From Octopus sinensis (Eukaryota): a stretch of DNA of 64,000 nucleotides. A program made the position numbers and the translations under genes. The stretch lies in assembly GCF_006345805.1 (NCBI RefSeq), contig NC_043000.1, forward strand, positions 48,484,001 through 48,548,000, read 5' to 3'. The first letter of the stretch is position 1. Each line of letters starts with the position of its first letter. The notes under the pieces are model-generated. The model had not been told where the DNA came from and made no database searches. It saw nothing but the letters and a program-made list of their open reading frames with translations. This document shows positions 14,220 through 49,471 of the stretch, in pieces.

Positions 14220-14812
14220 GTGGACTTCTTTCAGCTTCCGTCATTAAATCTACTCACAAGGCTTTGGTCATCCTGAGGCCAGAGTAGAAAACATAAAGCG
14301 GCGAGCTGGCAGAAACGTTAGCACGCCGGGCGAAATGCTTAGCGGTATTTCGTCTGCTGTTACATTCTGAGTTCAAACTCCGCCGAGGTCGACTTTGCCT
14401 TTCATCCTTTCAGGGTCGATAAATTAAATACCAGTTACGCACTGGGGTTGATGTAATCGACTTTATCCGTTTGTCTGTCCTTGTTTGTCCCCTCTGTGTT
14501 TAGCCTCCTGTGGGTAGTAAAGAAATAGGTATTTCGCCTACCGTTACGTTCTGAGTTCAAATTCCGCCGAGGTCAACTTTGCCTTTCATCCTTTCGGGGT
14601 CGATAAATAAAGTACCAGTTACACACTGGGGTCGATGTAATCGACTTAATCCCGTTGTCTGTCCTTGTTTGTCTATCCATATTTAGCCCCTTGTGGGCAA
14701 TAAAGAAATATATAGTAGAAAACATTCGCCTAAGGTACCATACATTGGGACTGAAGCCTGAACCATGTGGCTGGAAAACAAACTTCTCAACACACAGCCA
14801 CGCCTGCGCTTC
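13973..14812 (-). mobile_element. SINE family B interrupted by a family A dimer
   Basis: Family B sequence on both sides; insertion flanked by TSD AGTAGAAAACAT (14283-14294, 14714-14725). Confidence 0.85.
14297..14710 (+). mobile_element. SINE family A tandem dimer (full unit plus 5'-truncated unit)
   Basis: Full unit to about 14528, then a restart at GGTATTTCG; a single TSD surrounds both units. Confidence 0.88.
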
Positions 14813-29939: not shown

Positions 29940-29972
<33 letters not shown>

Positions 29973-29976
<4 letters not shown>

Positions 29977-30183
29977 TATATACTATACAAATATTTGACA
30001 TAGACTTATACTGTGTGATTGTGTGTATACTTTGTGTTTGTATATATTTCGGTACTTAATTGCGGGGGTATATATATATATATATATATTCATATATACT
30101 ATACAATATTTGACATAGACTTATACTGTGTGATTGTGTGTATACTTTGTGTTTGTATATATTTCGGTACTTAATTGCGGGGG
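29973..30183. repeat. Near-perfect ~96-bp tandem duplication separated by (TA)n
   Basis: TTCATATATACTATACAA...TTAATTGCGGGGG at 29973-30068 and 30089-30183; differ by a 1-nt indel. Confidence 0.9.
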
Positions 30184-31077
30184 TATATATATATATATGC
30201 GTGGGTGTGTATGTGTGTATGTATATATATATGTATGTATGTATATTCACTAGTTTTAGTCTGTGACAATGTGCGCGCGTATGTTTCTCTATGTATGGAT
30301 TAGTATTATGTGTATGTTTGTTTTTGCGTCCATCTGTCTGTGACATCACTGCCGAACCAACCAATGCACCGTGGAAAGAAATTATGAGAAACATAATGCG
30401 TTTTATAGTCAATGAAATCAGCAATTCAAATATATATTTATGACGAACGTTAGAAATAAAACATATATATATATAGCCATATGTTGCTATTAATGTTATA
30501 AAGATGGGTGAGATATATTCAGCTCAAAGGGATTGTGTGTCCGTGTCATCGTTTAAAGCCATATAAAAATTGAATTGTTATACAAATTTAGTGCAACATC
30601 TATGATATATCTTCCTTAAAAAGGATAAAGTATTCATAATTTCAATAGAAGTTTTTATATATTTGATATGTCGGTGGCAATTAACGCAAAACATAGTTCG
30701 CGTCGAAATTCTGTGGCTGTACTATCACGTTAAGCGGACCATTCCGCAATTCTGAGTAATATGATATGAAGTCATGTTTTCATGCCTTGCTGTATTATTC
30801 ATACTTATTGTAAATTTGTTCAAAATTAATTGTAGTCTTTAAATGAGACTGTTACTGAATACTTTCCGATATACCTTTGCTCATAGGTACGTGTATATTG
30901 TAGGCTTTTATATATTGATTAACATGTCCAAGCCATCTCATACGTCTTTGTGTGAAGAGTGCAAACATGCTTGGTATTCCTGCTTGCTTGGGGACATCTT
31001 TCTTGGGGACATGATTCTGCTATTTAATGCCAAGGGTTTTCCGGAGGCAGCGCAGGTGAAAGATATTTAGGCAATGC

Positions 31078-31540
31078 TCTTGGCGTGTTAGCCGTATGGA
31101 AGATGGCGGAATCCCCAAGGACATACTCTAGGGACAGCTTGCTAGGGGCACTAGGTTTGTGGGAAGACCATTCTTACGATACAAGGATGTTTGCAAAAGG
31201 AACATGAAGGCCTGCGACAATAATATTAGCAACTGGGAAGCGGTTGCCAGCAACCGTGGAGATTGGCGACGTACCATAAAAGAGGGAACACAAAGGAGTG
31301 ACAGAGGGAGAGAGGAGAAATGGAAAGACACGAAAAGACGTCAACAAGAAACTATGACATTACAACCAGCCAGGCAAAGTCTTCGCTACATTTGCAGCAC
31401 CTGCCAGAGAGAGTGTTTGTCCAGGATAAGACTACACAGCCACAGCAGGAGATGTATTAGGACATGAAATGTAAAAGCCGGGCTAGATTATTTTATGCGC
31501 AACTCCATTGTCTCCCGGGACAGAAAGGATGCCAACAATA
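31078..31540 (+). pseudogene. RTE-clade LINE 3' fragment (post-RT region, C-terminal zinc finger, 3' UTR)
   Basis: RMEDGGIPKDIL*GQLARGTRFVGRPFLRYKDVCKRNMK...W...CSTCQRECLSRIRLHSHSRRC; RTE-like 3' end CCATTGTCTCCCGGGACAGAAAGGATGCCAACAA. Confidence 0.88.
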
Positions 31541-44704: not shown

Positions 44705-45001
44705 CATGTATATATGTATGTGTGTGTATATATATATGTGTGTGTGTATGTATGTAATTATGTATGTATATATATATATGTATGTATATATATATATATA
44801 TATGTATGTATATATATAGGTATATATATATATATGTATGTATTTATGTATATATATATGTATGTATGTATGTATATATATATATGTATGTATGTATATA
44901 TATATATATAATATATATATATGTATGTATATATGTATGTATATATATATATGTATGTATATATATATATGTATGTATGTATGTATATATATGTATATAT
45001 A

Positions 45002-45035
<34 letters not shown>
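44705..45035. repeat. Degenerate (TA)n/(TATG)n microsatellite
   Basis: Directly visible; abuts the retrozyme-like array. Confidence 0.95.
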
Positions 45036-45036
<1 letters not shown>

Positions 45037-45228
45037 ACAATGATAACTATCAAAGTAGCAGTAGCGGTAACACATCGTGACGTATATTTGCCATCTCAAT
45101 ATGGCTACCCCTAAGGGTGGATGCTACTGTAGTTTTTAGCCCCAGGAGGACACACTCCTCCAGCTGGCCATAGACACAGAAAGTGTGTCCTGTCAGTATT
45201 TGCAAAGGGAAGTCATCCTTCCCGTCTT

Positions 45229-45298
45229 CAACTTATGATACACACGGACTCGAGTTTCGAGGTATTGACCTCTCGTCAGCGTGTGACAATCATAGTTG
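45229..45298 (-). ncRNA. Type I hammerhead ribozyme (intact)
   Basis: Exact reverse complement of 45724-45793; predicted cleavage between 45247 and 45246. Confidence 0.9.
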
Positions 45299-45723
45299 TC
45301 GGCGAGAATTAGATTTCCTTCACAAATACTTATACTTTTTCCAGCGTCCACTGTCGCTGATATTGAAAAAGTGAAATCAAACAATGATAACTATCAAAGT
45401 GAGTTATATACAGTAGCGGTAACACATCGTGACGTATATTTGCCATCTCAATATGGCTACCCCTAAGGGTGGATGCTACTGTAGTTTTTAGCCCCAGGAG
45501 GACACACTCCTCCAGCTGGCCATAGACACAGAAAGTGTGTCCTGTCAGTATTTGCAAAGGGAAGTCATCCTTCCCGTCTTCAACTTATGATACACTTATA
45601 TACCGCTACTGTATATAACTCACTTTGATAGTTATCATTGTTTGATTTCACTTTTTCAATATCAGCGACAGTGGACGCTGGAAAAAGTATAAGTATTTGT
45701 GAAGGAAATCTAATTCTCGCCGA

Positions 45724-45793
45724 CAACTATGATTGTCACACGCTGACGAGAGGTCAATACCTCGAAACTCGAGTCCGTGTGTATCATAAGTTG
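45724..45793 (+). ncRNA. Type I hammerhead ribozyme (intact)
   Basis: Stem I CACACG/CGTGTG extended by CAACT-ATGAT/ATCAT-A-AGTTG; core CTGACGA (45743-45749); stem II GAGGT-CAAT-ACCTC; GAAA (45764-45767); short stem III in palindrome ACTCGAGT; GTC cleavage triplet ending at 45775. Confidence 0.92.
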
Positions 45794-46011
45794 AAGACGG
45801 GAAGGATGACTTCCCTTTGCAAATACTGACAGGACACAGAAAGTGTGTCTATGGCCAGCTGGAGGAGTGTGTCCTCCTGGGGCTAAAAACTACAGTAGCA
45901 TCCACCCTTAGGGGTAGCCATATTGAGATGGCAAATATACGTCACTATATATATATATATATATATAAAGGCACCGCATACATATACATACATGTGCGTG
46001 AGTTGTGTGTA

Positions 46012-46050
<39 letters not shown>

Positions 46051-46546
46051 TCTAACATCAATGACTTGTTTTTCGCAAATGTAGATCTGTCATTGACAAA
46101 GCAGAAAATTTATTGCTTGCTATTGTTAACATTAATGGTCTAGTGTTTCATGTTAGATTCAAGAGTTGGTAAAGAGAGTCTGTAAATAGAAGAGCAAAGT
46201 GACTTAACAATTATTCTTGTTTCGGTATTATAAATGCAGTTAACTCCAATATTGTCGTTATTCTATAATCACAGGGTTTTCTTTTATAATACAGCCGTTC
46301 ATGTTGCTGAGATTGTCTTTCTAACTACACTAAGTTCTCTTCGCAGTATCTGTCAGTCTGTCAGACAAAATTTGAAGTATATCAAAAAGTTTTCCTTGTG
46401 GTCTTTCAGGGTACAATGCAAATTTCGTTTACTTAGACATCCTGTCTTATTATCTAACGTTAGCGTGGCTGCTAAAAGATTTACCACACTGTTTTTTTAA
46501 TTATAGCTATTTTTGCTTATTTTCCTTCTGGTTTGTATTATATATA

Positions 46547-46754
46547 TAAAGTTAATCCAAACATGAAAACACAAAGAGAAAACACAGCAAAGCGAGGACG
46601 TGGAACAAGTATAGTGTTATTGGACGCTCAAGGAAGTGAAGAAAGAAGGATTTAACGTTTCGAGCGGAGCTCTTCGTCAGAAACATAGACAAAGAAAAAG
46701 TCTAAGAAAGGGAAGACAGAGGAAAAAATCGTCAACGATACACACGCGGTCACA
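46547..46754 (-). mobile_element. Penelope pLTR-like repeat with a minimal hammerhead core (46648-46685)
   Basis: Minus strand CTGACGA A GAGC TCC GCTC GAAAC GTTA, with palindromic AACGTT; stem I weak. Bounded by (TA)n and (TATG)n; downstream sequence resembles 40290-40345. Confidence 0.65.
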
Positions 46755-48102
46755 TGTATAAAGTATGTATGTATGTATGTATGTATGTATGTATGTATGT
46801 ATGTATGTATGTATGCATGCATGCATGTATGTATGTATGTATGTATGTTTGTATGTATGTACGTACGTATAGACAGATAGATAGATAGATAGATAGATAT
46901 ATAGGGAGTGAGAGAGAGAGAGAGAAATACACGAATTTGTGCAGGAAATTATTCCTTTTACGCTTAAACTTATTTCCTCAGAAATTCTACTTGGAATAAA
47001 CTGATATTTTTGTCATGTAGGGTACATCATGTTTTCTCAGTCCAAAAATGTTTGCAGTTAAGTTATTATTGTTGTTTTCGAAAAAGTCTACGTTGTGGCT
47101 CATTGATTCCAATCGTATCCAAAGACTCAGACTACATTAATGTGACATTATCAATAATATGTATCTTTCATTTGTATGCTGAATTAGTACATCAACGCGA
47201 ATCCATATAATAACTCATTTAAAATCTGCATTATATCAATTATCGCTCACAGTATTATATGTCTTGTGACTTTTGTTTTATCTCCATTGGAAATGTGGGT
47301 GGAATATCAGTTCTACGCTTGGTACTAACAGAACTAGTAGTAGCATCGATTTTGGCAAGTCAGATAATCAGCTATTTTTCATAAGACATACTTTATACTT
47401 TTAACGATGTAAGCTGTTAGTAACAGATATGAATAGGTGTGCATTTACGTTTGAAGAAAAATCTGGCAAATCGACATATAAAGGTCAACAGAGTGGTCAA
47501 GCGCAACGTTGCTTCATTATTATCAATAGATCATTGAATTGTATTATCGATTATTGAGACATTCCAATATATAAATATATACAAGCAATGAAAAACATAA
47601 CATGTGTATAAATACAAGCACACACATATATACACGCATGTATAAATCTATGGTATATTGCGTGTATCATTACAAAGCATCATTACAAAATAATCCTTCT
47701 CTTTTGGAACATTTTATACTGCTCTTTCATTATTGATAAATGGAAGGGATTTATGGATAACATCATTAGATGAAAATTTGTTCAATGAATTGCTTTAAAA
47801 TTACTCACATTTTATGTTCGGATATGATTTATCTCAAATTATGATGCATCAACGATATTTAACTCATATTTGTGTATCCGAGTGAAGTGAATACATATCA
47901 GTACAAGCAAAGGTGAATACCACTGACATTACCATTTTTCCAAACTCAAATTTACCGATTTATATTCTCAGGTAAAATATATATAAATACTTGGTTATGT
48001 AAAGTACTTAGAAAGATCTCTATTTTGAGCCGCGCACTTTGATATATTTTAATAAGGATGCTTCCTCCGAACTTACATTGATAGTTTAAACACCAATACA
48101 GT

Positions 48103-48513: not shown

Positions 48514-49276
48514 TTAGCTGTCGCTAATATATAATTCTCAAATATTACTTTTTCTTGACATTTGTTCAAAAGAATCTGATTGATATAGTATTATATATCG
48601 ATTAGGTCAACAACCTATGATCGCAAAATATAATCATCAAACCTGCTGACCGCATTAAACGAAGCCCTGCCAATATGTAAGTTCAAAAAAGCAAAATATT
48701 TCTTAATGAATGTCATTATACAAATACGTTTGTGAACGTTTTATTTTCTGTCAATGGGTGGTGTCTCTTATAATATTTGTTTTGCTTCTAGAATAGTTTG
48801 CTTTCTTTATGCTATCTTAGCATCATGTGCAATCTTGGCAGCCAGCGCTTTTCTGTTCATAATGGCTTAAACACGTATTAAACGGTTAATTCAATTGGAC
48901 ATAGATTTTTAACTATGTCAATCCGATTAAAAATTGTATTAATGTTCCTTCTATTTGAACAAATGTATTTAGATTTTCACATTATTATGCACAGACTACG
49001 ATTGTTTAATACTAATAATAACAACAACAACAACAAAAGCAATAATATTAAAGGATAAGAAGAAGAAGAAGAAGAGTAACAATATCAACAACAATAATAT
49101 ACAAGAAATTTATGTATAATAGAAGACCATTTACTGATGGGGAGCTGAATACTTATAACAGCCAAATTTATTATAAAACTGGTTTTCACTGCGACTCAGG
49201 TTCGCCAAATCTCTTTCCTTCTGGCTTTGCTATCTCGCTTTATCTAATATATATTTATATAATGTAAAGTATAGAA

Positions 49277-49381
49277 GCCATCTGATCATGGCTAACCACA
49301 TTGCGGAGGGGGTGTTACTGTAGCTTTATAGCCCCAAGAGATCGTCGTCTCTAGCTGGCTTTAGACACAATATCAGTGCCC
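49277..49381 (-). ncRNA. Unassigned multi-hairpin motif homologous to part of the retrozyme unit
   Basis: Colinear with 45090-45190; conserved linkers and altered but still pairing stems. Strand inferred from the hammerhead sense of the homologue. Confidence 0.6.
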
Positions 49382-49471
49382 TTGGACAATCTCATTCTGA
49401 GATTTAATTATGCATATTTATATATATATTTATATATATATATATATATTATATATATATATATATATATA

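Follow-up and report, generated by a model that had tools for sequence, protein, structure and literature searches.

Non-LTR retrozymes of metazoans, the circular RNAs that they form and the hypothesis connecting them with Penelope-like elements (PLEs) have been described by Cervera and de la Pena (2020; PMC7229834). Among their examples, the retrozymes of Mytilus galloprovincialis are repeats of 350–390 bp. Non-LTR retrozymes also receive a one-line mention in the covered part of PMC8969392. In vertebrates, non-LTR retrozymes occur as monomer, dimer and short-multimer families and are proposed to be non-autonomous dependants of PLEs, a link drawn from co-occurrence and pLTR homology (Li, Clavereau and Pollet, bioRxiv 10.64898/2026.07.22.740005); molluscs are absent from the classes sampled in the covered portions of that preprint. 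PLEs themselves show partial tandems, an inverted 5′-truncated copy, a tail of 30–40 bp that is often one-sided, and TA targets (PMC8557442), and the tail on one side of inverted copies is likewise reported in PMC3846280. With the anole PLE protein in vitro, both strands are cut and extended, and the reverse transcriptase (RT) begins at two internal positions which delimit the tail, the two strands behaving alike (PMC11167929).

We analyzed a window of 64,000 nt of the Octopus sinensis genome (G000, 2.72 Gb), in which an earlier note had proposed a retrozyme-like repeat mobilised by PLE-type RTs. The non-LTR retrozyme class is thus already published, and what is new is this family: in the open literature we found no cephalopod or octopus retrozyme, hammerhead or Penelope family of this kind, and no literature on retrozyme insertion ends. 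The unit represents a young family, which by its testable features belongs to the non-LTR retrozymes and has a clear PLE integration signature. We consider it likely that this dispersed, non-coding 352-nt family with a hammerhead motif is a non-LTR retrozyme which the RT-endonuclease of a co-resident PLE has copied into (TA)n tracts.

Layout of the insertion in the window

Positions 45036–45948 form a single head-to-head insertion in a TA tract; the minus arm is 1.6 units long, and the plus arm is a single permuted unit. The insertion has TA tracts on both flanks: the left target microsatellite, (TA)n/(TATG)n, occupies 44706–45035 (sequence reading and tandem repeat analysis), and the right one, (TA)n, was read at 45946–45966. 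We numbered the unit after the natural unit of locus L005, in which the predicted cut follows position 349. The minus arm (45036–45595, minus strand, 560 nt) comprises a full unit (45244–45595) and then a terminal part of 208 nt (45036–45243). Its 5′ end lies 3 nt beyond a cleavage-site position and its 3′ end is unit position 216, which is the tail-bearing register; the PLE-type 3′ tail, as the term is used in the covered parts of PMC8557442 and PMC11167929, is at 45036–45073 on the minus strand (unit 171–216, with an 8-nt deletion). A 5-nt inversion of a hairpin loop is present in the same arm at 45179–45183 (minus strand), with a second copy at 45531–45535. A short filler of 5 nt (45596–45600) joins the two truncated 5′ ends head-to-head. 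The plus arm (45601–45948, plus strand, 348 nt) runs from unit 175 to 352 and then from 1 to 170, its homology reaches 45945–45948, and its 3′ end is in the tail-less register. The insertion fits the general end rule described below, with 216 at the left and ∼170 at the right.

The earlier note had described near-identical tandem and inverted 352-bp copies in (TA)n, and we found exactly this: a direct repeat at offset 352 (45059–45243 against 45411–45595) is 100% identical over 185 nt, and the inverted arms (45074–45421 and 45601–45948) are 98% identical over 348 nt. The tandem and inverted copies therefore stand, while their arrangement had to be refined to one full unit, a 208-nt part and a 348-nt permuted arm ending at 45945–45948.

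Each arm has one type I hammerhead, at 45229–45298 on the minus strand (core 45279–45247, predicted cut 45247/45246) and at 45724–45793 on the plus strand (core from 45743, predicted cut 3′ of C45775). The ribozymes lie on opposite strands, one on each, and neither arm holds two cleavage sites. The 352-nt monomer expected earlier had to be given up for this locus, because double cleavage is impossible with one ribozyme per strand. Since no monomer with ribozyme-made ends on both sides can come from it, the window insertion is likely to be a dead-end product and not a monomer source. With its single ribozyme per strand, it departs in this point from the retrozyme definition, with which other loci of the family, such as L005, L066 and L098, do agree.

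Stretches of the window were matched in at least 20 sequencing runs from 9 studies and six organism codes, none of those listed being recorded as RNA, and no host gene was recognised among the 30 window frames of at least 110 aa. The window also contains an old fragment of the 352-nt unit (49257–49382, minus strand; unit 53–167, 69% identical) and a second, unrelated small repeat flanked by TA (46546–46760). The latter has a minimal hammerhead-like motif (core 46680–46654, minus strand) with a palindromic stem III and a stem I of 3 bp; relatives of 72–86% identity exist at more than 10 other loci, and it is likely to be another PLE-derived family. Tandem repeats with two copies each are located at 14344–14710 (184 nt) and 29953–30198 (115 nt). 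A frame of 111 aa at 31132–31467 (plus strand) ends in a Cys/His-rich motif, which we take to resemble a LINE C-terminus.

The hammerhead motif and the repeat family

The cores at 45743–45775 (plus strand) and 45279–45247 (minus strand) have the same sequence. In the plus arm, CUGACGA (45743–45749) is followed by a stem II of 5 bp (45750–45754/45759–45763) with GAAA, and the core then contains the palindromic ACUCGAGU, followed by GUC at C45775; the stem III palindrome is at 45767–45774. Stem I has 6 bp (45737–45742/45776–45781) and is extended by a bulged outer stem (45724–45733/45783–45793). The ribozyme motif itself is an ordinary type I hammerhead. A check with Rfam Hammerhead_1 (RF00163), as suggested in the earlier note, did give a match (32.2 bits, E 7.8e-6), but one below the 34-bit cut-off, and a scan of the whole window at the cut-off yielded no hammerhead matches. 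We rejected the miRNA matches from Rfam as microsatellite artefacts.

We compared the active fold across 21 hand-picked copies spanning all subfamilies and observed that 97.1% of the cells were paired, against 15–59% in slid controls. Two-sided changes were present in 5 of the 18 pairs and affected all four helices. The third pair of stem III is UA, UG or CG among these copies, so that the 8-nt palindrome is retained, and compensatory changes were seen in a set of 17 closer copies as well. As a shuffle control can be beaten by mere kinship of the sequences, weight was placed on the pair types. Whole-unit RNAalifold of 10 close copies had two-sided pairs at only 2/94 positions, their divergence being too low for the test. 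With the core, three helices and compensatory changes, a type I hammerhead motif in each arm, as claimed earlier, was confirmed.

The unit of L005 folds with z = −6.64, and the stem III palindrome could form a self-duplex of −10.7 kcal/mol. A palindromic stem III is the dimer-type architecture of metazoan hammerheads according to the covered part of PMC4209133. Two results count against easy cleavage of the monomer: the minimum free energy structure of the ribozyme fragment is a fold different from the active one, and in the folded circle the pairing probability of stem III is 0. Self-cleavage of the unit transcript is a prediction from the modelled fold. Other hammerhead-like motifs were noticed at L107:757-1250, L111:584-626, L165:3235-3275, L172:3274-3408 and L102:2621-2678, the one at L107 sitting in a head-to-head element within a TA tract; the genome contains several families with hammerhead-like motifs.

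We counted 654 exact copies of the 33-nt ribozyme core genome-wide (0 for the control), and the full-length matches are 97–100% identical among the 40 scored out of 1623 candidates, in support of the earlier view of a recent family with other genomic copies. Mean divergence was 0.9% within loci and 2.0% between loci. Unit length and both 3′ ends are kept in a subfamily of ∼88% identity and in another of ∼75% identity (218 pattern matches), and a 20-mer common to the older subfamilies has 1324 exact genomic matches. The unit measures 352–353 nt, within the retrozyme range of 150–450 bp; its GC content is 43.2% (retrozyme criterion, below 45–50%), and tandem arrays, which had been foreseen, comprise up to about 7 units. 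That it is non-coding, as first read, agrees with a longest ATG frame of 38 aa and a longest stop-free stretch of 84 aa in a natural two-unit stretch. Retrozymes of the non-LTR kind have no PBS, PPT or true LTR, and their target duplications, where they occur, exceed 4 bp; no LTR-like framing of the unit was seen in the sampled loci, and target duplications are unreadable inside TA tracts.

The longest sampled arm is 2.5 kb, and the copies are dispersed short insertions over many contigs, unlike satellite DNA with its long arrays at few loci. Later local duplications were observed at L064, L073 and L078; at L064:2746-3185, the array contains a repeat of a tail-ended copy and a TA run, which points to local duplication or re-insertion.

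These properties place the unit next to the retrozymes of PMC7229834. It shares with those in the covered sections a short non-coding tandem unit with a GC content under 45%, a canonical type I hammerhead, a highly self-paired RNA and PLEs in the same genome, the likeness being one of description. Expression, cleavage and circles were demonstrated for those retrozymes, whereas the octopus family is known from sequence alone. Its fixed double 3′ ends, head-to-head arms and TA targeting are undescribed in the sections of PMC7229834 covered.

Insertion ends and Penelope-like elements

We surveyed the ends in 59 loci, selected by the exact ribozyme core, which contain the first 100 core matches on contigs C1 and C2 in order of position. 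Among their 97 arms, 51 had the 3′ end at unit 164–172 and 35 at 209–220, with 11 elsewhere. There are thus two fixed 3′ ends, at unit ∼167–170 and ∼212–216, about 45 nt apart, while the 5′ ends are variable and spread over the unit. From the lists of junction positions we used the positions and not the totals, since reverse matches were double-counted and the ∼170 list represents one haplotype.

The two registers are strictly paired. Out of 31 head-to-head pairs (L078, a local duplication, entered the count twice), 8 had an off-register end, and the ends of the other 23 all fell in a fixed register; 22 of these 23 were mixed, with one end of each type (p = 1.4e-6). The sole exception, L068, is due to a 24-nt inner piece, and the outer ends of this locus are mixed too. 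On other contigs (C3, C4 and part of C5), all 14 pairs were mixed and none had the same register, among 36 and 34 ends. Single-arm insertions mostly ended at ∼170 (24/29). TA runs flanked both ends at 44 of the 59 loci, one end at 12 and neither at 3.

Only 4 of 86 5′ ends lay within 10 nt of the predicted cut site (p = 0.23), so there is no excess, and 1 of 33 further loci started there. A pile-up of 5′ ends at this site, suggested by 1324 versus 758 exact 20-mers on its two sides, was therefore rejected, the extra loci being older subfamilies with variant cores and the direct test not being significant. A peak was present at unit 130–153 (19/86 in one 22-nt bin), which could be due to TA microhomology, to stalling once a round is complete or to a bound protein.

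With 5′ ends that vary, targets in (TA)n and 3′ ends fixed at two positions, the insertions of the unit carry a PLE footprint. Like canonical EN+ PLEs (Penelope/Poseidon, Neptune; as described in the covered parts of PMC8557442, PMC3846280 and PMC11167929), they show 5′ truncation, partial tandems, an inverted 5′-truncated copy, a one-sided tail, an AT or (TA)n target and a hammerhead in the repeat. The unit differs from those elements in having no RT or GIY-YIG frame, the whole element being one 352-nt unit; its tail is about 45 nt as against 30–40, and it carries a canonical ribozyme, stem I being long, in place of the minimal one of the PLEs. The PLE anatomy of the insertions supports the mobilisation by PLE-type RTs put forward in the earlier note.

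The polar ends also bear on whether the repeat could be a DNA-level minisatellite or fold-back repeat that recombination or repair has multiplied in TA tracts, the hammerhead being a relic. The later local duplications at L064, L073 and L078 are in favor of such a repeat; however, fixed 3′ ends with variable 5′ ends, strictly paired registers, the occupation of many contigs and the compensatory changes in the RNA fold are against it. It is largely refuted by the polar ends, and we regard it as very improbable.

Searches for GIY-YIG domains gave matches in 147 of the 150 scored out of 5029 candidates. Several families with RT and GIY-YIG are present among the loci examined, with open frames of 775–781 aa and, as read from the sequence without a tree, a CxxC linker as in Neptune or Nematis. 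One of them, found at L111, has an RT-GIY-YIG frame of 781 aa and TA-targeted copies that are 98–99% identical, and a partial tandem of this type is present at L120. Judged from these sequences, it is a candidate driver of the unit. In this family (L111:1140-5960 and L112-L123, e.g. G000:C1:207473000-207481000), an overlapping frame of 479 aa precedes the 781-aa frame. The homologues of the PLE proteins suggest a molluscan host. Several homologues of the PLE RT-endonucleases are labelled as proteins of bivalve gill symbionts, and these are probably host DNA in bacterial bins.

In 32 GIY-YIG loci, 22 further PLE or junction loci and 30 old-subfamily loci, we found no autonomous element that terminates in the unit, so that the PLE dependence of the unit is read from the insertion footprint. 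L118, where an 88% unit lies beside a PLE frame of 775 aa, was rejected as an autonomous parent, as the unit is a separate insertion behind a TA/AG tract and the PLE has a different 3′ end. At L046:1122, L085:2615 and L097:2755, a 5′ junction of the unit adjoins PLE coding sequence with no TA tract between them; these could be insertions with deletion or RT template switching. The PLE family at the L046 junction had no unit homology in the 12 loci examined, and a chimera is unsupported.

A parent could still have escaped such a survey, and the unit would then be the mere pLTR of an autonomous PLE, its copies being heavily 5′-truncated. The insertion anatomy is that of a PLE, Xenopus retrozymes and pLTRs are related (bioRxiv 10.64898/2026.07.22.740005, covered portions), and our survey took in a part of the candidates (150 of 5029). 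Nevertheless, long arms do not run into an ORF but consist of the 352-nt unit over and over, head to tail and up to about 7 times, the older subfamilies keep the same closed unit, the L118 copy is a separate TA-tract insertion next to a PLE with its own 3′ end, and an RT match within 1.5 kb was seen at 1 of 30 old-subfamily loci. This reading, which the earlier note had named as one that would refute its own, met with no link to a PLE end in the loci examined, and we consider it improbable.

The non-autonomous retrozyme, which we prefer, has other relatives among PLE dependants. It shares the proposed PLE dependence and the monomer, dimer and short-multimer families with the vertebrate retrozymes (bioRxiv 10.64898/2026.07.22.740005), but a homologous pLTR was not found here and the link is instead made by insertion footprints. 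The Chlamys MRC1-type elements are also non-coding PLE dependants with multicopy head-to-tail insertions; unlike the octopus unit, they generally have 3′ ends resembling those of an autonomous family, and hammerheads are missing from most Chlamys elements, according to the covered part of PMC8557442.

The template RNA and the proposed cycle

Next, we considered the RNA from which the arms are copied. At shared variant sites, concordance was 450/480 on the same strand and 209/237 between opposite arms, compared with 20994/67760 between loci; the copies inside one insertion are one haplotype. In 121 of 141 locus-by-variant cases, every covering copy had the lineage variant. Of the 146 private substitutions, 121 were confined to a single copy, as expected of later mutation or assembly error; 15 were present in some of the covering copies and 10 in all of them. 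In the window, variant 205G is present in 3/3 covering copies and at one other genomic site. The 5-nt loop inversion is found, genome-wide, in both minus-arm copies and nowhere else, the plus arm lacking it. Variants shared by the tandem copies of the tail-bearing arm and lacking on the other arm were likewise seen at L042, L021 and L008, and they imply that one error-free template is insufficient; they could have come about through gene conversion, a second copying of the first cDNA or the use of two sibling RNAs.

For the whole cycle, we propose that arms with two or more ribozymes would be transcribed and that the ribozyme, probably dimeric through its palindromic stem III, would cut out monomers, which a host ligase would close. 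Judged by length, about 24 of the 85 arms sampled have room for two ribozymes and could serve as such sources. The PLE protein would then cut both strands of a TA tract and prime reverse transcription inside the RNA, the usual start being ∼170 (as in the single-arm insertions) and the start for the second strand ∼215. Both cDNAs would cross the cleavage junction, possibly for more than one round, and stop at a variable point, and the joining of the two cDNA 5′ ends would give the head-to-head insertion.

The same family and the same PLE enzyme could also work on an uncut linear multimer transcribed from a source array, with the ribozyme mostly idle and the arrays regrowing through RT jumps or DNA-level duplication and not by rolling circle. 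Its only difference from our explanation is the template step, and for that step alone we hold it to be a possibility of some weight, on the less probable side. With the anole PLE in vitro, cleavage is dispensable and uncleaved RNA is the main substrate (PMC11167929, covered part), 1 of 9 predicted Xenopus retrozyme dimers was cleaved (bioRxiv 10.64898/2026.07.22.740005, covered portions), stem III is weak in the monomer, and a heterogeneous source array fits the arm-restricted tandem variants. On the other hand, variants that arose once and are fixed through the insertion in 121 of 141 cases would need a repeated monomer-to-multimer step, the assembly has no source array for the variants of the window, and the ribozyme fold is kept across about 25% divergence. 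The absence of a 5′-end excess at the cut site indicates that the template is continuous there.

Clean cyclic contigs from two sequencing runs are a further point against an uncut multimer. In X2 and X3, whose status as RNA is a guess, one contig of 383 nt each has a 30-nt terminal overlap and closes to a cyclic 353 nt, with no coverage of the unique flanks; in X15 and X16 the flanks are covered and the unit is broken into many contigs. An abundant circle, a tandem transcript or tandem DNA fit the cyclic contigs alike. We lean slightly towards a circle rather than an uncut multimer as the template. A more specific proposal, in which both arms are copied from one circular 352-nt RNA, a PLE dimer priming the strands at ∼170 and ∼215 and the cDNAs rolling round, is tentative and we think it rather unlikely. 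If true, priming at two sites of one RNA would invariably give rise to the PLE tail and the inverted pLTR, and the insertions would be genomic evidence of an animal circular RNA serving as a retrotransposition template.

The mobilisation of animal retrozymes by PLEs via circular RNA is a hypothesis in PMC7229834, with support from co-occurrence and homology in bioRxiv 10.64898/2026.07.22.740005, as far as the covered parts of both go. In the octopus family, hundreds of young retrozyme copies carry the signature of PLE integration, and the counted rule, by which an inverted insertion pairs a tailed with a tail-less end, agrees with the two sites at which the RT starts in vitro. With an RNA of 352 nt and intact frames of co-resident PLEs, the formation of PLE tails and inverted repeats, as well as the question of a circular template, become testable, and the family is useful as a minimal model of PLE integration.
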